A DNA stretch of 27,940 nucleotides from a virus (lineage: Duplodnaviria > Heunggongvirae > Uroviricota > Caudoviricetes). Shown in pieces: positions 1,410-27,037 of the stretch; positions within the stretch are counted from its first letter, which is position 1; every line of letters begins with the position of its first letter. Both the position numbers and the translations under genes were made by a program. The notes below the pieces were generated by a model. That model searched no databases and was not told the origin of the DNA. It worked only from the letters and a program-made list of their open reading frames with translations. The DNA lies in the IMG/VR virus record IMGVR_UViG_2778261462_000004, one strand, 5' to 3'.

Positions 1410-1480
1410 AGTGGAAGCCAACCGAGCAGAAACGAGCTTGAGCGGTTTCTAAGGGGTTGGATCTAGTGAGGGTATCACAA

Positions 1481-1753
1481 ATGGAACCAAACGATTATTT
1501 GTTGCAGTACCCGCTCGACGCGGTTCATGTTGAAAAGTTTGCTGAGTTATTAGGCAAGCCAAAAACGGCTGTTGCAGAAATGGTGAAAGCTAACAAGCTA
1601 CCGGTAATTGAGCTTCGGGATCCATGCAAACCGAATGCTCGCGCCGGTGAAAAGTGGGTTTTCATCCCGGAATTTAATCGCGCAGTTCGTGAGGCGTTCT
1701 ACAACCGACCGGTAGAACAGCGTGACGCGTGGCTGCTTTGGATGGGGCTTTGA
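1481..1753 (+). CDS. cox: Cox-like excisionase/early transcriptional regulator (90 aa from ATG 1481; ORF track starts at an upstream TTG 1457)
   Basis: GAGG at 1468-1471 nine nt before ATG 1481; ..KLPVIELRDP..RAGEKWVFIPEFN..RDAWLLWMGL resembles P2 Cox (91 aa) as recalled; first gene of the rightward early operon. Confidence 0.8.
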   Translation: MEPNDYLLQYPLDAVHVEKFAELLGKPKTAVAEMVKANKLPVIELRDPCKPNARAGEKWVFIPEFNRAVREAFYNRPVEQRDAWLLWMGL

Positions 1754-1755
1754 TT

Positions 1756-1932
1756 ATGAATGAGCCTCGTTGCATTGCTCAGTTATTGCGTAACGAGAGC
1801 CCGAGGGCGATGGATTTCACTATTACCCACGGCAGAGGGCGCAAGGGCATCATCATCCGCACCAAAAAACAGAGCGTTATTAGCGCCGTTTTTGCTTTTC
1901 TGAAATCCCGGAGGTTCTGGAAATGCCTGTGA
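1756..1932 (+). CDS. small early hypothetical protein (58 aa), position of P2 orf78
   Basis: ATG 1756 with GGGG 8 nt upstream; overlaps B start by 10 nt; function unknown. Confidence 0.45.
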   Translation: MNEPRCIAQLLRNESPRAMDFTITHGRGRKGIIIRTKKQSVISAVFAFLKSRRFWKCL

Positions 1933-2423
1933 TGACACTTGGTATCGTGGAGAAACAGCCTGCAGCTCTGCGCGGTCTGATTGGTAAATATCTGGCCGCG
2001 CCTCGCTGGCAGGATAGTTGCGATTTTTACAATCAGATGATGGAACGTGAGCGACTGACCGTTTGTTTTCATGCTCAGTTAAAGCAGCGTCACGCGACGA
2101 TGCGTTTTGAAGAAATGAACGATGTAGACCGCGAGCGATTGGTTTGCGCTATTGATGAGCTGCGTGCTGCATTTTCCAGACGTCGACAGGTTGGCGCGAG
2201 CGAGTATGCGTATATTAGTTTTTTGACGGTCAGCCAACGTCGCACTTTGTTTATGCATGCCGGATTAACTGAAAAAGAATTTAATCAGCCTTACTGGCGT
2301 ATTAATGAAGATTCCTGTTATTGGCGTGATGCCTTATTTCGTGCATTGCGAGAGCTTTTTAATTTATTTGAATATGCACCAACAATATTAACCTCGGTAA
2401 AGCCTGAGCAATATCTGCATTAA
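1923..2423 (+). CDS. B: replication protein B (helicase-loader-like), 166 aa
   Basis: GGAGG 8 nt upstream of ATG 1923; same length as P2 gpB (166 aa, from memory); position between cox and A. Confidence 0.75.
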   Translation: MPVMTLGIVEKQPAALRGLIGKYLAAPRWQDSCDFYNQMMERERLTVCFHAQLKQRHATMRFEEMNDVDRERLVCAIDELRAAFSRRRQVGASEYAYISFLTVSQRRTLFMHAGLTEKEFNQPYWRINEDSCYWRDALFRALRELFNLFEYAPTILTSVKPEQYLH

Positions 2424-2486
2424 ATAAACAACCGTAGTTTTTTACGCACTTAATTGTGCGGGGCTTCTTTTTGTCTGGAGAAAGTC

Positions 2487-2711
2487 ATGCATACAGTAAC
2501 AGAAAAGCAGAGCGGTAACTTCTTATTAGTGCTGCAACAGGCACGAGCCGAAGCGCAGGCAGATGCGGCGACGCGCTTTTCCTCTCATCTGGATAGTTTA
2601 ATCCGTCATATAGCTGGCGCTGAGTTATCGCGCGTGGAGATAGTCGAGTTACTCAGTCAGGAATCCATCAAGTTTCATAATATCGGCCTTTCTCGTGGGG
2701 AGTCTTTTTAA
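2487..2711 (+). CDS. small early hypothetical protein (74 aa; ORF track begins upstream at 2454)
   Basis: GGAGA 7 nt before ATG 2487; stop overlaps next start (TAATG at 2709-2713). Confidence 0.55.
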
Positions 2712-3007
2712 TGTCTCTGATGCAATCCGTATTACTTAATAACTGGCTAAAGATTGCGGTTATGAAAAACGGTGAATTATCGCTTTCTGACATTAGGCGC
2801 GATAAAGAAACCGGAGCGATGACAGAATCAACCATCGCTATTTATTCGAGTGAATTAAACCTCCTGACGGATGTGGTCAATTTGCTTGTGAAACGCGCCG
2901 TTTTTCATAAGCAAATCACCACCGTAGATGAATTATCGAAATTAACTATCGAGCTAACCGGTTACTGCGCCGGTGAGTTTAAAAAACTGAACAGAGAGAG
3001 GAGCTAA
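2711..3007 (+). CDS. early hypothetical protein (98 aa)
   Basis: Translationally coupled to upstream ORF; no recognisable motif. Confidence 0.55.
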   Translation: MSLMQSVLLNNWLKIAVMKNGELSLSDIRRDKETGAMTESTIAIYSSELNLLTDVVNLLVKRAVFHKQITTVDELSKLTIELTGYCAGEFKKLNRERS

Positions 3008-3011
3008 ATCA

Positions 3012-3236
3012 ATGCCGGATTATATGGATCACATTCAGGAGCGACAGACGGAATCATTGACTCGCCAGATTAACGCCGCTCGGGTGAAACCGTGCGGCGC
3101 TGCTGCATTGGTTTGCGAGGAATGTGACGCACCAATCCCTGCCGACCGCCGTGCGGCATATCCGTCGGCGACACGCTGTGTCTACTGTCAGTCAGCGCTT
3201 GAATCAAAAGCTAAACACTTTCGGGGGCAGGCATGA
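3012..3236 (+). CDS. TraR/DksA-family C4 zinc-finger protein (74 aa), position of P2 orf82
   Basis: C-x2-C ... C-x2-C motif visible (..CEECDAPIP...RCVYCQ..); small size typical of phage TraR homologues. Confidence 0.7.
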   Translation: MPDYMDHIQERQTESLTRQINAARVKPCGAAALVCEECDAPIPADRRAAYPSATRCVYCQSALESKAKHFRGQA

Positions 3237-3508
3237 GCATTCGTATCGAGATTGGCGAGCGCTATGTCGTCACAAGTGACCGTTTTCAGTTCATTTTGCA
3301 GGAGAAAAAGACCGCTGAAACAGGGAAGAATGCCGGTAAAGAGTGGCTGGATGTTGTCGGCTATTACCCCAAATTAAACCAGCTCGTTTCCGGTCTGATT
3401 CATCACGATATTTTGAGCGGTAGCGCTGTCTCTTTTGAGGAATTGAGCGCTCAGGTTGAGCTACTCGGTCAGCAGTGTTTAAGGGCTTTTGACACAAATG
3501 GCCGTTGA
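3233..3508 (+). CDS. early hypothetical protein (91 aa), position of P2 orf83
   Basis: ATGA overlap with the preceding stop; ORF directly precedes A. Confidence 0.55.
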   Translation: MSIRIEIGERYVVTSDRFQFILQEKKTAETGKNAGKEWLDVVGYYPKLNQLVSGLIHHDILSGSAVSFEELSAQVELLGQQCLRAFDTNGR

Positions 3509-5789: not shown

Positions 5790-5806
5790 TTGTGAGAAAA
5801 ATCTGT

Positions 5807-5980
5807 GTGATTGTTGGGTGGATTGCTGGGCTGTCGCTTTTCTTTCTGCTTCTTGGTTGGGCGGGTGAGCAAGACCGTAAAGACTGTGAGGAACGGATAG
5901 CAACAGAGCTGAAAACCACGGCTGTTTTTATAAACAATAAGTGCATGGTGAAGGGGTATGGCCGCTTTGACGGGAGGTGA
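5807..5980 (+). CDS. small single-pass membrane protein (57 aa from GTG 5807; alternative starts ATG 5780 / GTG 5792)
   Basis: Hydrophobic stretch ICVIVGWIAGLSLFFLLLGW followed by a charged tail; GAGAAA 7 nt before GTG 5807; sits where P2 carries orf91/tin/old; followed by a terminator. Confidence 0.4.
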   Translation: MIVGWIAGLSLFFLLLGWAGEQDRKDCEERIATELKTTAVFINNKCMVKGYGRFDGR

Positions 5981-6089
5981 CCTATCTGACCCGAGCAAAC
6001 GCCGCCGGTGCTGAAACTCGCTTTCAGTGCTGGCGGGGTTGAACAACGAGCCCCGCGAGGCGTTAGCCTGCCCCGTAGAGACCGCCCAC

Positions 6090-6118
6090 AACCGGCACGA
6101 TTAAAGCCGGTTTTTTTA
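6090..6118 (+). terminator. candidate intrinsic terminator of the early operon
   Basis: AACCGGC-acgattaaa-GCCGGTT hairpin followed by T7 run (6111-6117). Confidence 0.45.
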
Positions 6119-6277
6119 TGCCATTTTTCCGCGAATTTCCCGTTTTTAAGCCGTGCATGCAACAGGTGCATTGTTTTGCATGCGTCAGGCTTGCCCGTCT
6201 TGGCCGTGCGCCGCCAGTGCTGGCGCGGATCCAGAGTGGTCATGCAACTGCATTAAAACCGACCCATAAAGCGGGCA

Positions 6278-6296
6278 GGCGTGGCGGGGAAAGCAT
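6278..6296. other. cos cohesive-end site (GGCGTGGCGGGGAAAGCAT)
   Basis: 19-mer closely matching the 19-nt cohesive end I recall for P2/186-family phages (GGCG[A/T]GGCGGGGAAAGCA[C/T]); lies between the early region and portal Q, exactly where cos sits in P2. Confidence 0.6.
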
Positions 6297-6440
6297 TGCG
6301 CGCCAGCGGTGATGCGTAATGATAAAAATTATCGTCTGAGCGCGTCGTGATGGCGCTGCCGTGGATGCTGTCGGCTCGTTGGTGGTCTGGTGTGGTCGTG
6401 CGCGCGTGGCGCGTCTGAGGCGTGATGGTGGCGGGGTGTG

Positions 6441-6462
6441 AAAAAGCCGCCATGCTGGCGGC
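6441..6462 (-). terminator. intrinsic terminator downstream of Q on the minus strand
   Basis: GCCGCCA-tgc-TGGCGGC stem; on the minus strand it is followed by TTTTT (A5 at 6441-6445 on plus). Confidence 0.55.
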
Positions 6463-6473
6463 TTGAGGGGGGA

Positions 6474-7520
6474 TTATTCCGGGTTGTCGAGGGTGTACTC
6501 TTTGAACCTGATGACCTCCATGCCGAGCCAGTCGTTTACCTCCCTGAGCCTGTCCTGCAGGGGTGACAGCTCGTTACGCACGAATACTTTTGCCACCTTC
6601 TCAACGTCGCCGAGTGAGCCGATATTCTCGGGCTTGCCGCCCATGAGCTGGAACGGTACGCGGTGCGCGTCCATCAGGTCGGCGGCGCTGGCTTTCTTGA
6701 TGTTGAAAAAGTCATCCTTTGTGGCGACCTCGCTCAGTGGCAATATTTTGATGCCGTCCGGTTTTCCGCCGGGAGCATAGAAAAATAGGTTCTTAAAGTT
6801 CCCGAGCCCTTTCGAGTTGCGCATCGCCTCGCGCAGCGATTCGACGTCGGTCGCGCTCTGCGCCGGGTCGGTCACATACATGATGTAACCCGCGTGCGCG
6901 CCGTTCTGGTAATACTTGCGGCGAAACAGTGTCGCGGATTCATTCAGCCAGGCGGAATTTAGCGCGCTGAGATATTCGGGCAGGCCGTAAATCTCCTGAT
7001 TTATATCGGGCTCCAGCAGATGAAACACGGTATCAGGCGCGAACTCATGCGGAAGTGTGAAGTTTTCCACAAACCAGAATATCGAATCGTCGACCCCGCG
7101 CCGGGTATATTTGGCCGGTGAGGCAAGCAGCTTGATTAACTGGCCGGTGACGCTGTGGCGCTGCTCAAGAAAGGCGTTTCCGAATACCAGATAGTCGAGC
7201 GCAAAGCGGCTGAAATCCTGACGGGACAGCAGCGGGTGCGGAATGTAGGTGCTCGCGAGCACGTTGCGCTTAACGTAAATCGGTGAGCTGTGATGCACAG
7301 CAGAGCGCAGGCTCTTTGCCAGTCCGGAGAAGCTGACCGGCGGCTCGTACCATTTGCCGTTACTGATGCACTCGACGTAATCCAGAATATCGCGCTTATC
7401 GAGTACCGGAATCGGCTCGCCGAAGGTGAACGCTGTCGTTTTTGGCGGTGCGCTGGCGGTCAGTTGTTGTGGCTTGCTGGCCTTCTGCGCAGCGGCTTTA
7501 CGGGATTTTTGCTTACCCAT
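6474..7520 (-). CDS. Q: capsid portal protein Q (348 aa)
   Basis: Size and position match P2 Q; start ATG one nt from the P stop; leftward Q-P operon. Confidence 0.9.
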   Translation of the reverse strand: MGKQKSRKAAAQKASKPQQLTASAPPKTTAFTFGEPIPVLDKRDILDYVECISNGKWYEPPVSFSGLAKSLRSAVHHSSPIYVKRNVLASTYIPHPLLSRQDFSRFALDYLVFGNAFLEQRHSVTGQLIKLLASPAKYTRRGVDDSIFWFVENFTLPHEFAPDTVFHLLEPDINQEIYGLPEYLSALNSAWLNESATLFRRKYYQNGAHAGYIMYVTDPAQSATDVESLREAMRNSKGLGNFKNLFFYAPGGKPDGIKILPLSEVATKDDFFNIKKASAADLMDAHRVPFQLMGGKPENIGSLGDVEKVAKVFVRNELSPLQDRLREVNDWLGMEVIRFKEYTLDNPE

Positions 7521-7521
7521 T

Positions 7522-9291
7522 TTAGTTGAACTCCAGAATAGATTTAGGCTGCATGCCGCTACCGGCGGAAAGCGGTTCGTTTAACAGAGCGTGCATGGTT
7601 GCCCATGCGATATCGGCGTGACTGGCTTCCTCGGTGCGGCTGGCCTCGTAGGTGGCGCTGCGCCCGCTGCTGGTCATGGTTTTGCGGATGGACATAAACG
7701 ACTGCGTGACGTCGGTCGCCCCGGCGTCGTACTCCAGACAGCCGCGGCGAATGGTGTCTTTCGCCTTGAGTACCATCGCGGTTTTCATTTCGGGGGTGTA
7801 ACGGATGCCGCGTGCCGCCGGGTAGAATGAGCGCACCAACTGGAACACGCCGAGACCGAGGCCGGTTGCGTCAATGCCGATGTATTCGACGTTGTATTTC
7901 TCGGTCAGCTTGCGGATGCCCTCTGCCTGTGCGGCAAAGTCCATGCCCTTCCACTGGTGGCGCTCCAGCATGCGGAACTTGCCACCAGAAACCACCGGCG
8001 GCGCGAGCACGACGCACCCGGCGCTGTCGCCAGTGTGTGACGGGTCGTAGCCAATCCAGACGGGGCGAGAGCCGAACGGATGGTCGGCGAACGGGGCGAA
8101 GTCCTCCCATTCTTCCATCACGTCGACCATGCAGCGCTGCAGCTCCTCGAACGGGAATACCGAAGCTTTATCGTCGACAAACTCGCACATAAACAGGTTC
8201 TTAAAGTCCTCATCACTGTTTTCGCGTTTGAGCTGGTCGAGGTCGAACAGGGTGCAGCCACCGGCAAGGGCGTCCTCAATGGTGACAATCTGCCGCCACT
8301 GACCATCGTCGCAGAGCTGACCACCGGCGAGCGCGTCGTGGCTGATGTCGATTTCGATGCGGTCGGCAATACGGCTGCGACCCTTGTTGAACAGTTCGCC
8401 AGACCAGAAGGGGTAAGCGCCGTGCGCCAGCGTGGAAGGTGTCGAAAAGTAGGTTGAGCGCAGGTGCTTCTGCGAGGCCATGCCCGACGCGACTTTGCGC
8501 AGCTTCTGAAAATTCGGGATCCAGAATATTTCATCGACATACAGGTCGCCGTTATGGCTCTGCGCGGTATTGGAGTTGGTACCGAGAAAAATCAGCTTTG
8601 CGCCGTTGTTGCCGATGACAATCGGGTCGCCGGTCAGGTCGACGTCGACCAGTCGCGCAAACTGGATGATGTATTCGCGGAACACGTAAGCCTGAGTTTT
8701 ACTGGCCGACAGAAAGATTTGGTTATGGCCGGTCTTGAGTGCGCGCAGCAGCGCCTCGCGGGAGAAATAGAACGTCGCGCCAATCTGACGGGATTTGAGA
8801 ATGTCGCGAATACGGTGCGCCAGTCCTGCGCGGTACCACTGCAACTGGTACTCGAAAGACTGGTCGAAAAATAATTCTTCCAGTTTTTCGATAGCCTCGT
8901 CGCTGAAAAAGTTCTTTTTTGGCTTCTTACGCTCGCCCTTGTTACGGTTGGCGACATTGGGGTTAAGGTCGACCTCGTTGCCGGTCTGGCTGTAGCGGTT
9001 AACGCGTGCCAGTCGCTCAATCTGCCGCCCGAGCAGGTCAATCTCTTTGAAGTCGCCGCCTGACTTTTGCGGCTTGGCGATGAGCTGAATCAGGCGCGCC
9101 TCAAGGCTGCTTTCAACCCGGGAAATCGGTGCGATGCCGTCCCAGCCGTCGCGCTGCTTCCAGCTCTGCACGGTCGGGCGCTTGACCTGCAGCATTTCGG
9201 CAATCTGTGGCACGGAAAAGCCCTGCCAGTAAAGCAGCGATGCCTGCCGTCGCGGGTCATGCAACAAGGTTGTATCGGTGGAAATGGTCAT
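7522..9291 (-). CDS. P: terminase large (ATPase/nuclease) subunit P (589 aa)
   Basis: Size (P2 gpP ~590 aa) and position divergent from O; long well-behaved ORF. Confidence 0.9.
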   Translation of the reverse strand: MTISTDTTLLHDPRRQASLLYWQGFSVPQIAEMLQVKRPTVQSWKQRDGWDGIAPISRVESSLEARLIQLIAKPQKSGGDFKEIDLLGRQIERLARVNRYSQTGNEVDLNPNVANRNKGERKKPKKNFFSDEAIEKLEELFFDQSFEYQLQWYRAGLAHRIRDILKSRQIGATFYFSREALLRALKTGHNQIFLSASKTQAYVFREYIIQFARLVDVDLTGDPIVIGNNGAKLIFLGTNSNTAQSHNGDLYVDEIFWIPNFQKLRKVASGMASQKHLRSTYFSTPSTLAHGAYPFWSGELFNKGRSRIADRIEIDISHDALAGGQLCDDGQWRQIVTIEDALAGGCTLFDLDQLKRENSDEDFKNLFMCEFVDDKASVFPFEELQRCMVDVMEEWEDFAPFADHPFGSRPVWIGYDPSHTGDSAGCVVLAPPVVSGGKFRMLERHQWKGMDFAAQAEGIRKLTEKYNVEYIGIDATGLGLGVFQLVRSFYPAARGIRYTPEMKTAMVLKAKDTIRRGCLEYDAGATDVTQSFMSIRKTMTSSGRSATYEASRTEEASHADIAWATMHALLNEPLSAGSGMQPKSILEFN

Positions 9292-17194: not shown

Positions 17195-17795
17195 CCGACT
17201 GTTACCCGTTGGCTCGTCGCCACTGGAGGTTGCCGCCGCTGCCGCGCTCTCTGAGATTCAGCGCGTGCCGGTACCGCTGCGCACACTGTGGAACTGGCGC
17301 ACCTGCCCGGTAAACCTGCTGCCATATCTGGCGTGGGCGCTGTCGGTCGACAGGTGGGATGAGAAGTGGCCGGAGGCAACAAAGCGCAGCGTCTGCGCCT
17401 CCTCGTTTTTCGTCCATCAGCATAAAGGCACTATCAGCGCATTGCGCCGGGTGGTCGAGCCGCTCGGCTTTCTGATTGAGGTGCGCGAGTGGTGGCAGCT
17501 CGACGAGGAGCCAGGCACATTCCGTCTTGTTGTCGGCGTGCTCGACAGCGGCATCACTGACGAAATGTATCAGGAGCTTGAGCGTCTGATTGAAGACGCC
17601 AAACCGGCAAGCCGCCATCTGACCGGGCTGGCTATCAGCCTGAGTGCAACCGGTGAGTTCTTTGTCGGCGCGGGATGTTACGACGGTGACGCGCTGACCG
17701 TTTACCCCTACACCCCCGAGGAAATTGTCGTCGGCGGTGAATATTACCCGGCCTCGGCCATCCATTTGATTGATAACCTGAGAGTGAACGCATGA
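17187..17795 (+). CDS. I: baseplate protein I (202 aa)
   Basis: Overlaps J stop and H start; position as P2 gpI. Confidence 0.85.
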   Translation: MSDRLLPVGSSPLEVAAAAALSEIQRVPVPLRTLWNWRTCPVNLLPYLAWALSVDRWDEKWPEATKRSVCASSFFVHQHKGTISALRRVVEPLGFLIEVREWWQLDEEPGTFRLVVGVLDSGITDEMYQELERLIEDAKPASRHLTGLAISLSATGEFFVGAGCYDGDALTVYPYTPEEIVVGGEYYPASAIHLIDNLRVNA

Positions 17796-18904
17796 CCGCA
17801 AAATATTTTGCCATTCTGACCAATCAGGGCGCGGCGCGACTGGCGAACGCGGCGGCACTCGGTACCAAACTCAACCTGACGCAGATGGCCGTCGGTGATG
17901 CGAATGGTACGCTGCCGACCCCTGACCCGGCACAGACGAAGCTCATTAACCAGAAGCGCATCGCGCCGCTGAACCTGCTGACCGTTGACCCGGCAAATAC
18001 CAGCCAGATTATCGCGGAACAGATTATTCCAGAGAATGAGGGCGGCTTCTGGATCCGCGAGATTGGTATCTACGATGACGACGGCATTCTGATTGCCGTG
18101 GCGAACTGCCCAGAGACCTACAAGCCGCAACTGCAGGAGGGAAGCGGACGCACGCAGACCATTCGCATGATTCTGATTGTGTCAAGCACGTCGTCTATTA
18201 CCCTGAAAATCGACCCGTCGGTTGTGCTGGCAACCCGAAAATATGCCGATGACAAGGCAATTGAGCTGAAACTGTATGTCGATGACTTGATGTCTAAGCA
18301 CCTTGCGGCGGCTGACCCGCATTCACAATATGCTACAAAGGACAGCCCGACCTTTACCGGCAAGCCAAAAGCACCCACGCCGCCGGTCGTAGCAAATGAT
18401 AAACAAGTTGCTACAGCGGAGTTTGTGCAGGCGGTTATTGCCGCCCTTGTATCCGGGGAACTGGCGAATAAGCAGCCGCTGGATAAGACGCTAACAGACC
18501 TGTCAGGGAAAGATGTCGCCGCTATTCTCGAATACCTTGGTTTGAAAGAAGCGGCTCAAAGGGATGTTGGGACTGACATTAACCAGATTCCGGATATGTC
18601 AGCGTGGGACTCTGGATCTAACTGGCGTAGAACGCCAGATGGGTTTATCGAAGTGTGGGGCGATTCATCTGTCACAAACACGTCAACCGGAATTGCTGTT
18701 GCAACATTTCCGGTTCCATTTCCTAATGAGTGTTTGAGCGTCATGATTAATGAAGTGACCAATGTGGCATCTGGTATTTCAGGTGTTAAATCGTGGGGGT
18801 TAGCGCGTGACACAATATCAAAAACAGGTGTATCAGCGATATTGAATGTCACAGGCAGTCCGGCAGCTGGCGAGTTTTTTGTTTATCGTGCAATCGGGAG
18901 ATAA
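17792..18904 (+). CDS. H: tail fibre protein H (short form, 370 aa)
   Basis: N-terminal ~150 aa resemble the P2 gpH N-terminus (..MAVGD..GGFW.RE.G.YDD.G.LIAVAN..YKP...EGSGR.QT.RM..IVSS..); C-terminal ~110 aa carry a ..PDGFIEVWG..VATFPVPFPNECLSV.. motif typical of phage side-tail-fibre tips. Confidence 0.85.
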   Translation: MTAKYFAILTNQGAARLANAAALGTKLNLTQMAVGDANGTLPTPDPAQTKLINQKRIAPLNLLTVDPANTSQIIAEQIIPENEGGFWIREIGIYDDDGILIAVANCPETYKPQLQEGSGRTQTIRMILIVSSTSSITLKIDPSVVLATRKYADDKAIELKLYVDDLMSKHLAAADPHSQYATKDSPTFTGKPKAPTPPVVANDKQVATAEFVQAVIAALVSGELANKQPLDKTLTDLSGKDVAAILEYLGLKEAAQRDVGTDINQIPDMSAWDSGSNWRRTPDGFIEVWGDSSVTNTSTGIAVATFPVPFPNECLSVMINEVTNVASGISGVKSWGLARDTISKTGVSAILNVTGSPAAGEFFVYRAIGR

Positions 18905-18905
18905 T

Positions 18906-19136
18906 ATGAGCAAATATATTTGGTCAGCAAAAAATAATTCATTTATCCCCGTCACATTAATACAATTATATATTAATGCGGGATGGGATTTGTCAGATGC
19001 TATCCCCATTGATGACGCAGTTTCCGCCGAATTTATGGGAGAGCCGCCAGACGGGAAAAGACGAGATGTCGGCGGCGATGGTCTTCCGTGCTGGGTAAAT
19101 GTCAACCAGCCTGGTCAGGTGGAACAGGCCAGTTAA
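18906..19136 (+). CDS. G: tail fibre assembly chaperone G (76 aa, apparently truncated relative to P2 gpG)
   Basis: GGGAGA RBS; N-terminus MSKYIWSAKNNSFIPV.. is the typical Tfa N-terminal motif; ORF is much shorter than P2 gpG (~175 aa). Confidence 0.6.
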   Translation: MSKYIWSAKNNSFIPVTLIQLYINAGWDLSDAIPIDDAVSAEFMGEPPDGKRRDVGGDGLPCWVNVNQPGQVEQAS

Positions 19137-19183
19137 TATCTGGTGCGCTGGATACGTCCACCGCTTCCAGCGTATCCCTAAAG

Positions 19184-19208
19184 AAAAAGCCGCTCTACGC
19201 GGCTTTTT
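19184..19208. terminator. bidirectional intrinsic terminator between G and the convergent minus-strand ORF
   Basis: AAAAAGCCGC-tctac-GCGGCTTTTT: GC stem flanked by A5 and T5. Confidence 0.6.
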
Positions 19209-19209
19209 C

Positions 19210-19548
19210 TTACATCCCGAGTGCAAAATACGTATAGCTGTCAATATTGGTTGCCACTCCCCCCCCATTCCATCCATAAAGACTAAAGCCAGTTAAGGTA
19301 TAATTAACTGACGTCACATACCGATTGTCAGCTGTGATTTTATGCGGCAAAACGATAAACGGGGTGACGTTGAACGGCTTTTTATACCGTACAGTAGCGT
19401 TGGTCGCCTGAACAGAACCGCTCCCCCATTGCAGCAAAAATCCTCCGGGCAATTCAAAGTAGCCATTAGCCTCCAGCAGCCGATCTCCAAAACCAACCTT
19501 TGAAAGAATGGCGGGCTGATGCCCGTCTTTTTTTGATTTATTTATGTG
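19210..19548 (-). pseudogene. orphan tail-fibre C-terminal domain fragment in inverted orientation (113 codons stop-to-stop, no ATG)
   Basis: Minus-strand frame open from the stop at 19549-19551 to the stop at 19210-19212, translating ..NGYFELPGGFLLQWGSGSV..KKPFNVTPF..; same motif pattern as the H tip (..PDGFIEVWG..TFPVPFPN..); only a TTG start with no adjacent SD. Confidence 0.4.
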
Positions 19549-19634
19549 TCATCGGCTATCCATCGCCGACAAATAGCCCCTCACCAGACCAGCCAGGACA
19601 ATAACACTCGCCCACTAACCACGGAGTTAACCGG

Positions 19635-20822
19635 ATGAGTGATTTTCACCACGGCGTACAGGTGCTTGAGATTAACGACGGCACCCGCGTCATTTCCACT
19701 GTCGCAACCGCAATCGTCGGCATGGTCTGCACGGCCAGCGATGCGGATGCCGAAACATTCCCCCTCAATGAGCCGGTACTGATTACCAATGTGCAGAGCG
19801 CCATTGCGAAAGCCGGTAAAAAAGGCACGCTGGCTGCATCCCTGCAGGCTATCGCCGACCAGTCAAAACCCGTCACCGTTGTCGTGCGCGTCGCCGAAGG
19901 TGTCGACGATGACCCGGATGCAGCTCAGGCGCAGACCATTTCTAACATCATCGGCGGCACGGATGAGAACGGTAAATACACCGGTATCAAGGCGCTGTTG
20001 ACTGCCGAAGCAGTCACCGGCGTTAAGCCGCGTATTCTCGGCGTGCCGGGTCTCGATACGCAGGAAGTCGCAACCGCACTCGCGTCGGTCTGTATCAGCC
20101 TGCGCGCCTTTGGCTATGTCAGCGTATGGGGCTGTAAGACCATTTCCGAAGCGATGGCCTATCGCGAGAATTTCAGTCAGCGCGAGCTGATGGTCATCTG
20201 GCCTGACTTCCTCGCATGGGATACTACCGCGAACGCCACCGCAACGGCTTACGCCACGGCGCGGGCGCTCGGCCTGCGCGCCTACATCGACCAAACTGTC
20301 GGCTGGCATAAAACCCTGTCCAACGTCGGCGTGCAGGGTGTCACCGGCATCAGTGCCTCAGTGTTTTGGGATTTGCAGGCATCCGGCACCGATGCTGACC
20401 TGCTCAACGAGGCCGGGGTCACGACGCTGGTACGCAAAGATGGTTTCCGCTTTTGGGGTAACCGCACCTGCTCTGATGACCCGCTTTTCCTGTTTGAGAA
20501 CTACACCCGCACCGCGCAGGTGCTGGCCGACACGATGGCCGAGGCGCACATGTGGGCGGCCGATAAGCCCATTACCGCATCGCTCATTCGTGACATTGTC
20601 GACGGCATTAATGCCAAATTCCGCGAGCTGAAATCTAACGGCTACATCGTAGACGGTGAATGCTGGTTCGACGAGGAATCGAACGATAAGGAAACCCTCA
20701 AGGCCGGGAAACTGTATATCGACTACGACTATACGCCGGTTCCCCCACTGGAAAGCCTGACCCTGCGCCAGCGTATCACCGATAAATATCTGGTGAATCT
20801 GGCCGAATCGGTCAACAGCTAA
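19635..20822 (+). CDS. FI: tail sheath protein FI (395 aa)
   Basis: GGAG RBS; size as P2 FI (~396 aa). Confidence 0.93.
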   Translation: MSDFHHGVQVLEINDGTRVISTVATAIVGMVCTASDADAETFPLNEPVLITNVQSAIAKAGKKGTLAASLQAIADQSKPVTVVVRVAEGVDDDPDAAQAQTISNIIGGTDENGKYTGIKALLTAEAVTGVKPRILGVPGLDTQEVATALASVCISLRAFGYVSVWGCKTISEAMAYRENFSQRELMVIWPDFLAWDTTANATATAYATARALGLRAYIDQTVGWHKTLSNVGVQGVTGISASVFWDLQASGTDADLLNEAGVTTLVRKDGFRFWGNRTCSDDPLFLFENYTRTAQVLADTMAEAHMWAADKPITASLIRDIVDGINAKFRELKSNGYIVDGECWFDEESNDKETLKAGKLYIDYDYTPVPPLESLTLRQRITDKYLVNLAESVNS

Positions 20823-24348: not shown

Positions 24349-24837
24349 ATGATGATGCTTGCTCTTGGAATGTTTGTGTTTGAACGTCGCACCCTGCCTT
24401 ATCAGTCGATGCAGCACTCGAAGAATTACCGCTGGGCGTCTAATGACCGGGTCGGCAAACCGCCTGCGTATCAGTTTCTCGGCGAGGGTGAAAACGCGAT
24501 CCAGCTTGCCGGCACGCTTTATCCTGCCATTACTGGCGGTCGTATATCCCTGCTGGCTGTCGAGCTGATGGCCGACGAGGGCAGAGCTTGGCCGCTGATT
24601 GAGGGAACCGGCAATATCTTCGGGATGTATATCGTCGAGACGGTGTCGACCACGCATACCGAGTTTTTCAGTGATGGCGCGGCCAGAAAGATTGATTTCA
24701 CCCTTTCGCTAAAACGGGTCGACGAATCCCTGATGGCAATGTTTGGCGACCTGAATAAGCAGGCCAGCGAGCTTCTCGGCTCAGCCGGTAATCTGACTGA
24801 TAAGCTGCAAGGTGCGCTCGGAGGGCTGACCGCATGA
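24349..24837 (+). CDS. U: tail protein U (start ambiguous among ATG 24349/24352/24355)
   Basis: AAGGAGG RBS at 24339-24345; size ~160 aa as P2 gpU. Confidence 0.88.
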   Translation: MMMLALGMFVFERRTLPYQSMQHSKNYRWASNDRVGKPPAYQFLGEGENAIQLAGTLYPAITGGRISLLAVELMADEGRAWPLIEGTGNIFGMYIVETVSTTHTEFFSDGAARKIDFTLSLKRVDESLMAMFGDLNKQASELLGSAGNLTDKLQGALGGLTA

Positions 24838-26003
24838 TTACGGGCATGACGATTGACGCCGGTACCAGCCTTGCACCGGCATTTATGCTGACGCTGAACA
24901 GCCAGGACATTACCAACAATTTTAGTGACCGGCTGATTTCTCTCACCATGACCGACAACCGGGGTTTTGAGGCTGACCAGCTCGACATTGAGCTCGACGA
25001 CACTGACGGCAAAGTCGAGTTACCCCTGCGCGGGGCGGTGCTGACGTTGTGGCTTGGCTGGCAGGGTTCCGCACTTCTCAATAAGGGCGATTTCACGGTC
25101 GATGAGATTGAGCACAGGGGCGCGCCTGATACCATGACCATCCGGGCGCGTAGTGCAGACTTTCGCGGAACGCTCAATTCACGGCGTGAAGAATCATGGC
25201 ACGACACCACCCTCGGTGAGCTGGTCAGCACCATTGCAAAGCGCAATAAACTGACGGCCAGTGTCGCGGATACACTGAAAAAAATCCCGGTACCGCATAT
25301 CGACCAGTCGCAGGAGTCCGACGCCGTATTTCTTACCCGACTGGCGGACCGCAACGGGGCGGCGGTGTCAGTGAAAGCGGGGAAGCTCCTGTTTCTGAAA
25401 GCCGGTAGTGCAATGACGGCCAGCGGCAAGCCCGTCCCGCAAATGACCCTGACCCGCAGCGATGGCGACCGTCATCAGTTTGCCATTGCTGACCGTGGGG
25501 CTTATACCGGCGTAACAGCAAAATGGTTGCATACCAAAGACCCGAAGCCGCAAAAGCAGAAAGTAACGCTGAAACGTAAGCCAAAAGAGAAGCACCTGCG
25601 CGCACTGGAGCACCCGAAAGCAAAGCCGGTCAGCAAAAAGACAAAAGCCAAAAAAGAACCAGAAGCGCGCGAGGGTGAGTACATGGCCGGTGAGGCCGAT
25701 AACGTGCTGGCGCTGACGACGGTCTACGCTTCTAAGGCGCAGGCGATGCGCGCCGCTCAGGCTAAGTGGGATAAGCTGCAGCGAGGGGTTGCGGAGTTTT
25801 CAATTACGCTGGCGCTTGGTAGGGCTGATTTATTCCCTGAGACACCGGTGCGCGTGTCGGGCTTTAAGCGCGTCATAGACGAGCAGTCATGGTTAATCAG
25901 TAAAGTGACCCACAGCCTGAATAATAGTGGCTTCACGACGGGATTAGAGCTTGAGGTTAAGCTCTCTGACGTAGAGTATAAAGCGGAAGATGATGAGGGG
26001 TGA
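24834..26003 (+). CDS. D: tail protein D (389 aa)
   Basis: ATGA overlap with U; size as P2 gpD (~387 aa); last gene of the FI operon. Confidence 0.9.
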   Translation: MITGMTIDAGTSLAPAFMLTLNSQDITNNFSDRLISLTMTDNRGFEADQLDIELDDTDGKVELPLRGAVLTLWLGWQGSALLNKGDFTVDEIEHRGAPDTMTIRARSADFRGTLNSRREESWHDTTLGELVSTIAKRNKLTASVADTLKKIPVPHIDQSQESDAVFLTRLADRNGAAVSVKAGKLLFLKAGSAMTASGKPVPQMTLTRSDGDRHQFAIADRGAYTGVTAKWLHTKDPKPQKQKVTLKRKPKEKHLRALEHPKAKPVSKKTKAKKEPEAREGEYMAGEADNVLALTTVYASKAQAMRAAQAKWDKLQRGVAEFSITLALGRADLFPETPVRVSGFKRVIDEQSWLISKVTHSLNNSGFTTGLELEVKLSDVEYKAEDDEG

Positions 26004-26080
26004 TTTTAATTTATCCGTTTGTTATATAAGGATTTATTGAGTAAAATTAACACATCAGCCAAATCGTTGAGGTGCTTAAT

Positions 26081-26299
26081 ATGTTTCATTGCCCGTTATG
26101 CCAGCATGCAGCCCATGCACGTACAAGCCGTTACATGACCGATACAACAAAGGAGCGTTATCACCAGTGTCAGAACGTGAATTGTAGCGCCACGTTCATT
26201 ACATTTGAGTCGGTGCAGCGTTACATTGTTAAGCCAGGTGAGGTTAATGCCGTCAGGCCTCACCCGTTGCCATCGGGTCAGCAAACTATGTGGATGTAA
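26081..26299 (+). CDS. ogr: late-gene transcriptional activator Ogr (zinc finger, 72 aa from ATG 26081)
   Basis: MFHCPLCQHAAHARTSRY.TDTTKERYHQCQNVNCSATFIT.ESVQRYIVKPGE..AVRPHPLPSGQQ.MWM, near-identical to P2 Ogr as recalled; GAGGTG RBS 7 nt upstream. Confidence 0.93.
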   Translation: MFHCPLCQHAAHARTSRYMTDTTKERYHQCQNVNCSATFITFESVQRYIVKPGEVNAVRPHPLPSGQQTMWM

Positions 26300-26304
26300 C
26301 CACA

Positions 26305-26341
26305 AACAAAAAGCCCCGCGATTGCGGGGCTTGTTTATTTT
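26305..26341. terminator. bidirectional intrinsic terminator between convergent ogr and the moron ORF
   Basis: GCCCCGC-gatt-GCGGGGC stem (26313-26330) flanked by an A-rich run upstream and TTGTTTATTTT downstream. Confidence 0.7.
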
Positions 26342-26751
26342 GACTTTGGCATTCCAAACATATGCGTTTTTGAGAGCATCACAACTTTAGCTCTGTCATC
26401 TGGCTCTTTACCCATCTCGTTACAAGTTGCGAGAGGCTGTTCGAGCACATAACCAAATGCTTTATGTTTATTCAGTACGTGCAATTCTTTAGTTGTTTTC
26501 ATGTAGGAATTCGGTACATCTTTTGTCCAAACATCCATGCAAATTCCTGAGCTTATGACCGCATCATAAATTTCAGGTGTAACTTGGTTTGCGTCCAAAA
26601 CGACAGTGACAATGTTATTACTTTCTTCTATTTCAATCGGTTGCCATAATTTTAGCTGCTTTTGCAAGGTTTTTACGTTATTCGTTTGGGCGTGGGCGGG
26701 GATAGACAGAAGAATGGCGACGACCGCAACTACCGATTTGAGGTTAAACAT
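26335..26751 (-). CDS. secreted/periplasmic protein of unknown function (138 aa), AT-rich moron
   Basis: Sec-type signal peptide MFNLKSVVAVVAILLSIPAHA-QT; AAGGA RBS 6 nt before ATG; candidate promoter (TTGTTT-17-TATAAA) upstream on the minus strand; AT-rich relative to the phage backbone by eye; two Cys in the mature part; no recognised family. Confidence 0.6.
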   Translation of the reverse strand: MFNLKSVVAVVAILLSIPAHAQTNNVKTLQKQLKLWQPIEIEESNNIVTVVLDANQVTPEIYDAVISSGICMDVWTKDVPNSYMKTTKELHVLNKHKAFGYVLEQPLATCNEMGKEPDDRAKVVMLSKTHMFGMPKSK

Positions 26752-27011: not shown

Positions 27012-27037
27012 AGCGTCAGTTGATAGCGGGAGTATTT

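Follow-up and report, generated by a model that had tools for sequence, protein, structure and literature searches.

The window, that is, the whole stretch of 27,940 nucleotides that was analysed, is an almost complete P2/186-like E. coli prophage. The integrase gene (1-1011) occupied one end and was followed by replication, capsid, lysis, baseplate, and tail genes, D (24834-26003), and ogr (26072-26299); the host fieF gene starts at 27020. The sheath-gene DNA showed 89% identity to phage 186. Among isolated phages, Klebsiella RCIP0057 and Escherichia Midge came closest, with ~92% identity over 43-45% of the H-to-FI query. Only short, doubtful ORFs were seen between the replication and portal genes (5790-6470), at the tin/old position of P2. 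Between ogr and host fieF we observed a minus-strand gene (26335-26751) for a 138-aa protein with a signal-peptide-like N-terminus.

The fibre gene H, its neighbours, and the silent frame

The constant N-terminal part of the tail-fibre gene H (17792-18536, plus strand) encodes a collar domain, with PF12571 covering residues 1-150, and a shaft, and it ends at the core of the left crossover site described below. Compared with prophages of the same backbone, this part showed 92-97% identity until 18543/18544, where the homology breaks. The C-terminus of H is a variable tip, tip A (18539-18904, plus strand), which matched the Gp53-like_C family (PF21882, 47.4 bits) at residues 281-370 of H. Tip A is homologous to the H tip of L010, where it lies inside the invertible segment of an invertase-bearing prophage. 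The DNA of tip A and of the following gene G matched none of 50,697 phage records.

G (18906-19136, plus strand) is a truncated tail-fibre assembly (Tfa) gene of 76 aa, the length given in the preliminary description, and is called G76 here. It aligned to residues 1-73 of the Tfa proteins of L010 (Tfa141) and L012 (Tfa147). Its score against Caudo_TAP (PF02413) was 17.6 bits, below the cut-off of 22.1, and covered only profile positions 2-65 of 131. Antisense to the last G76 codons lies what remains of a Tfa 3' end, in inverted orientation (RDTLEAVDVSSAPDINWPVPPDQAG and a stop; 19102-19179, minus strand). The remnant comprises the last 25 Tfa codons plus the stop, aligned to Tfa residues 122-138, and showed 90% DNA identity to positions 3443-3492 of L010 in reverse orientation. 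Because the Tfa 3' end is inverted and antisense to the G76 end, the chaperone gene must have been rearranged; the G region is a local inversion plus deletion adjoining a palindromic terminator. This bidirectional intrinsic terminator (19181-19211) has a perfect 13-bp stem and a 5-nt loop. As the preliminary description had proposed, it separates G from the frame on the other strand and folds on either strand, with energies of −19.8 and −20.2 kcal/mol and z-scores of −6.7 and −4.6, respectively. The terminator is kept beside the same tip in L004 and L010, which are invertase-bearing relatives.

Between G and FI (start 19635), the minus strand holds an open frame (19548-19210) of 112 sense codons and a stop. 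No ATG was found in it, in agreement with the earlier claim; its sole Met is the final residue, and the earliest potential start is a TTG at 19452 without a Shine-Dalgarno sequence. The frame matched PF21882 with 33.3 bits (cut-off 24.9) over profile positions 2-83 of 84. The tip module proper (19494-19210, 94 codons and a stop, GFGD...ALGM) is called tip B, and as a feature it spans 19210-19496 on the minus strand, with reading beginning at the core of the right-hand crossover site (19495-19496) and its own start codon absent. The 17 codons upstream are a read-through of the crossover site and of the G-FI intergenic terminator.

The frame had been described as a fragment of a tail-fibre tip. 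It is indeed a fibre tip, but the word fragment does not hold, as tip B is a complete variable arm and not a broken piece. The database search gave 76 tip B homologues at E <= 3e-42, 76/76 of them with PF21882, and tip B also forms the end of full-length H proteins in L011 and L013. The described likeness to the tip of H in pattern and not in DNA was confirmed: both tips belong to PF21882 and share 28% identity over 46 aa (E=5e-4), and no DNA similarity was found between tip A and tip B. The tip B DNA showed 93% identity to the silent tip of L004, a prophage whose backbone is only 66-71% identical, and this match takes in the terminator and the inner half-site. The tip B protein matched none of the 50,697 phage records.

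A scan of 18800-19800 revealed no sigma-70-like promoter. In this orientation tip B is silent, as it lacks both a promoter and a start codon and stands head-to-head behind the bidirectional terminator. Expression of tip B from a promoter or start codon of its own was considered and rejected, since neither a promoter-like site nor an ATG is present.

Tip B is also present in L036 (5001-5717), where it is the terminal part of a 191-aa fibre encoded by a prophage whose baseplate is of Mu type (homologues of Mu gp45-48), and the junction ...LENLG|FGD... falls at the same point as in H. A 37-aa Tfa stub follows this fibre on the opposite strand.

Crossover sites and the predicted inversion product

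The sites of the Din invertases (hix, gix, cix, pix, mix) follow the consensus TTCNNNNAAACN-NA-NGTTTNNNNGAA (PMC3241671 Table 3). Scanning the whole 27.9-kb window for this consensus with at most 2 mismatches gave exactly two matches, dixL and dixR, compared with 0.08 expected. The left site, dixL (18525-18550, 26 bp), reads TTCTCGAATACC-TT-GGTTTGAAAGAA with the core TT at 18537-18538. It showed 1-2 mismatches to TTCNNNNAAACNNANGTTTNNNNGAA and falls in the H codons ILEYLGLKE. The right site, dixR (19483-19508, 26 bp), reads ATCTCCAAAACC-AA-CCTTTGAAAGAA with the core AA at 19495-19496 and showed 2 mismatches to the consensus. It lies at the 5' end of the silent frame, where its minus strand encodes ILSKVGFGD, and its inner half is that of L004, which flips. 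As the plus-strand cores are TT and AA, the two sites are inverted with respect to each other. The inverted-repeat crossover sites for which the preliminary description suggested a search are thus present; they flank 18537-19496 and match the Din consensus. This interval of 960 bp is the invertible unit.

In the present orientation, the late operon makes H as the constant part plus tip A. With a serine invertase bound to the two 26-bp sites, cleavage at their common TT/AA core would be followed by rotation of the segment. The inversion would join ...AAILEYL to GFGDRLLEANGYF... (GFGDRLLE...), and the inverted junction is predicted to read TTCTCGAATACC-TT-GGTTTTGGAGATCGG. When the segment was inverted in silico, H was joined in frame to tip B, giving a 343-aa fibre that would end in tip B, while tip A and the G stump would be silenced. 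The junction sequences predicted for the flipped state are GCTATTCTCGAATACCTTGGTTTTGGAGATCGGCTGC and TTCTTTCAAACCAACCTTTGAAAGAATGGCGGGC.

From this arrangement, 18537-19496 is very probably a Din-family (Hin/Gin/Cin/Pin-type) invertible host-range cassette, in identity as well as in mechanism. Tip B is, with equally good confidence, the alternative and predicted receptor-binding tip of a host-range inversion switch. A shufflon or a diversity-generating retroelement was also considered; both were rejected, since the two sites are the only repeats and no reverse transcriptase is present.

Orientations in relatives and likeness to known systems

A natural counterpart of the predicted fibre was found in L013, a Klebsiella prophage of the window's own backbone (flanks ~95% identical). 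Its protein P0077 (343 aa) is 98% identical to the predicted chimera over 100% of the length, and its junction lies exactly at the core. The silent position of L013 holds a collar-type tip and a 190-aa Tfa, and the invertase is again absent. L013 was the sole match in the chimera protein search, and its partner arm is different.

Relatives that carry an invertase have a distant backbone (66-71% identical) and showed the order I, H, Tfa, inverted Gp53-like tip, invertase, FI, with Resolvase and HTH_7 domains in the invertase. L003 and L004 showed 99.9% identity save for 1.4 kb that is inverted between them, with breakpoints at the core TT and the invertase adjoining. L010 and L011, both from complete E. 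coli genomes, show the two states between them with an identical tip B, and one L011 site equals pixR of e14 at 26/26 positions. These inverted sites, the in-frame fusion, and the invertase-bearing relatives in two orientations support the geometry of the Mu G, P1 C, and e14 type proposed earlier. A second chaperone gene is missing, as had been noted, but this is normal, as the active relatives L004 and L010 have none for tip B either. The suggested comparison of the frame with fibre tips of related phages gave the 76 homologues and the 93% identity to the L004 tip reported above.

For the window cassette itself no flipped copy was found; exact look-ups of H and G76 returned two contigs from a single assembly, which do not differ in orientation, and with the cassette known from these two alone the negative carries no statistical power. 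The predicted flipped junctions had no match in IMG/VR, and the unflipped, invertase-less junction of the window had no match in the GTDB representative genomes. Among fully invertase-less prophages no orientation pair was found when the natural and in-silico-flipped cassettes of L014 and L012 were compared with 5426 E. coli genomes, which is a weak test; the comparison did bring up the CH425/CH423 and EC6622/MG48 pairs described below, whose invertases are truncated. In our collection of the invertase-less junction, a small set of 13 loci, all cassettes were either distinct or in the same orientation.

The closest known system is the P segment of e14 in E. coli K-12 with its invertase Pin, together with its P2/186-like prophage counterparts that have an adjoining invertase. 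These likewise have 26-bp sites, one relative's site being identical to pixR, and the inner half GGTTTGGGAGAA in the relatives equals the e14 inverted repeat. As in e14, a constant fibre N-terminus is combined with alternative C-terminal tips on convergent arms, located where the fibre genes give way to the following tail gene. Unlike e14, the window segment has neither an adjoining pin-type invertase nor a recognisable enhancer beside it, its one Tfa gene is truncated, and both arms encode Gp53-like tips. The Mu G segment with Gin and the P1 C segment with Cin share the Sc-[Sv U / U' Sv'] geometry; there, inversion at a 2-bp core changes the host range, and the invertases are interchangeable. 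Unlike in the window, each arm in Mu and P1 comes with its own chaperone, and the invertase and a sis enhancer lie beside the segment. The Mu segment is ~3 kb and the P1 segment ~4.2 kb long, and the 960-bp window segment is much shorter. The Salmonella H segment differs from the window in having its own hin gene and enhancer. Fels-2 Fin acting on this H segment (cited in PMC12529663) shows that the invertase of a P2-like prophage is active on a pair of sites located outside that prophage in the same genome.

This kind of system and its flipping in trans have already been described; the present tips, in an arrangement fully devoid of an invertase gene, add a new instance, and the window element is of an ordinary, well-understood type that has decayed slightly. 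Invertible cassettes of this sort determine the target bacteria of temperate phages and tailocins. Where such arms are annotated automatically as 'hypothetical' or 'partial' genes, functional receptor-binding modules would go unnoticed. The two tips and their fusion point (…ILEYL|G…) are a ready recipe for retargeting P2/186-type particles.

Invertase loss, present state of the cassette, and the shared junction

The preliminary description noted that no invertase is present, and within the window this proved correct. No such ORF was found, tblastn with the L010 invertase gave a best E=3, and only 126 bp separate dixR from FI. Din invertases need an enhancer in cis (PMC3798978). In the relatives L010, L015, and L017, the 5' region of the invertase gene contains a pair of Fis-like 15-mers with a spacing of 49 bp, located ~96 and ~145 bp away from the crossover site, which is the Fis-site geometry of the Hin enhancer (PMC3798978). 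No DNA like this enhancer-bearing 5' end was found in the window. The window prophage has lost its own invertase gene, presumably together with the Fis-binding enhancer that normally lies in the 5' end of that gene, and most of the Tfa chaperone gene has been lost as well. Tip B (region 19298-19360) does contain a pair of Fis-like 15-mers, GTATAATTAACTGAC at 19305 and GGCAAAACGATAAAC at 19353, whose 48-bp spacing is that of a Din enhancer; eight pairs with this spacing occur in the window, which gives a ~25% chance of one falling there by accident.

As its own invertase is lost, the switch could be thrown only by a Din invertase of another resident element, probably slowly. DNA matching the invertase gene was found in 4793/5426 complete E. 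coli genomes (88%), at a median of two places per genome. Action in trans is known: PinQ, PinR, and PinE act on e14 (PMC12529663), the same paper cites Fels-2 Fin as acting on the Salmonella H segment, and flipping in trans was reported for prophage Phi4 of EC958 (PMC4134206). The E. coli strains CH425 and CH423 (L017, L018) provide a further case, as their flanks are 100% identical, the cassette is inverted, and the adjoining invertase is only a 200-bp frameshifted stub. This flip on the same backbone beside a dead invertase stub shows that trans action is real. EC6622 and MG48 showed the same pattern, with truncated invertases, at 93% identity.

EC958 Phi4 and CH423/CH425 resemble the window in that their own invertase is dead. 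Those cassettes have been seen in two orientations and were therefore flipped in trans by another resident invertase. The window differs from them in two respects: they keep an invertase 5' stub with the Fis enhancer, whereas the window has lost the whole gene, and in the window the right site abuts the G-FI terminator. A stub carrying the enhancer is kept in every proven trans-flipping case, and the window is without one. Should a prophage be able to retain a second tip while lacking an invertase, using those of co-resident elements instead, its host range would depend on the rest of the mobilome.

The inverted 1.9-kb cassette (1460-3354) of L017 and L018 differs by 10 mismatches between the two strains. 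These may be consensus errors from mixed-orientation cultures, or they may reflect exchange between the arms.

Selection on tip B was assessed by comparison with L004 and L013, which gave dN/dS values of 0.086 and 0.064, respectively. On the window branch, polarised by these two sequences, 6 synonymous and 1 non-synonymous changes were counted against a neutral expectation of ~1.7 synonymous (binomial estimate, P ~0.001-0.004). Judged by these substitutions, the protein sequence of tip B has been constrained during most of its recent past, so that the loss of switching would be recent or switching continues.

It is quite possible, at a little under an even chance, that the window cassette can still flip. 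The other reading to be taken seriously, which also falls somewhat short of even probability, is that the cassette was once invertible, has been locked in the present orientation since the invertase and the enhancer were lost, and carries in tip B a young future pseudogene that has not yet decayed. The absence of both elements and the rearranged, truncated Tfa gene favour such a locked state, as do the decayed silent arm of the sibling prophage L001, which is cut after ~45 codons by a moron insertion, the degraded inner half-site of L032, and the rarity of the invertase-less junction (2/~1534). Locking is less easily reconciled with two intact sites and an entire tip frame, with the excess of synonymous changes over the ~1.7 expected if tip B were neutral, and with the finding that at least eight cassettes sit on the identical invertase-less junction, which is less easily explained if they never flip. 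The earlier suggestion of a decayed cassette accordingly applies to the invertase and G; the tip and the sites are intact, and the tip is under purifying selection.

Two further explanations carry little weight. The silent tip could serve as a donor for homologous recombination or gene conversion, with the tip exchanged by a RecA-type process and not by site-specific inversion, as in the recombination reservoir proposed in the preliminary description. Tip modules do swap between unrelated phages, tip B being 93% identical across backbones of 66-71% identity and present on the 191-aa fibre of the prophage with a Mu-type baseplate. We nevertheless regard this as very unlikely and not needed, because the arms share only the 26-bp sites, in which an exact match of ~10 bp is too little for RecA, and breakpoints at the 2-bp core are the signature of serine-recombinase exchange. 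That the frame is no fibre element, being open by chance or only mirroring a plus-strand gene in antisense, is suggested by the lacking start codon alone and can practically be dismissed in view of the Pfam score above cut-off, the 76 homologues at E <= 3e-42, and a dN/dS < 0.1. A plus-strand gene across the region was likewise rejected, as the ORFs there are only 49-65 aa long and match no Pfam family.

The site-specific cassette that we prefer ends in a junction shared with other prophages. The G-FI intergenic terminator (19501-19535, plus strand) has an A-rich 5' arm that overlaps the outer half of dixR, and the GAAAGAA of the junction is this A-arm. The sequence from AACCTTTGAAAGAATGGCGGGC onward is common to prophages without a silent arm, and from AACCTTTG onward the same sequence follows the stop codon of several G alleles in such prophages. 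The junction ...AACC-AA-CCTTTGAAAGAA-TGGCGGGCTGATGCC is common to the window, L001, L012, L013, L014, L016/L027, L029, and L032, and it carries at least eight different cassettes, in either arm position. Its frequency was 2 in the ~1534 complete E. coli genomes with this intergenic region. At position 2 of the outer dixR half, CCTTTGAAAGAA, the G of the consensus is not kept. The unusual CC adjoining the dixR core is likewise present in hixR (PMC3241671) and in the right site of the CH425/CH423 cassette, which flips. Since the outer half doubles as the A-arm of the terminator, its likeness to a half-site may be partly fortuitous.

A more speculative and rather improbable proposal is that AA-CCTTTGAAAGAA is a standing Din half-site, a landing pad that any cellular Din invertase could use together with the ILEYLG site in H. 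Such a pad would allow fibre-tip arms to be captured or swapped between unrelated phages, and arms to be flipped without the cost of an own invertase gene. It would explain why at least eight silent arms, several G alleles, and an invertase fragment are joined at the same nucleotide.

The sequence from AACCTTTGAAAGAA onward (19497-19535 in the window; L020-L032) is conserved behind many different upstream sequences, among them silent tips, the stop codons of G, and a piece of an invertase gene, and these joins at one nucleotide suggest a recombination hotspot. In L031 (1010-1120), an internal invertase fragment (…ALAEMERELIVERTLTGLAVARAK) runs straight into the AACCTTTGAAAGAA-terminator junction, with moron-like ORFs upstream. 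L026 showed a tandem duplication, TAGGAACCTTTGAAAG-TAGGAACCTTTGAAAGAATGG, at the boundary of G stop and half-site, ~60 bp before the junction. In L001 (E. coli 600029), 404-aa and 59-aa ORFs replace most of the silent arm (6604-8002), and what is left of the arm is a 123-nt inverted repeat of the start of the expressed tip only.
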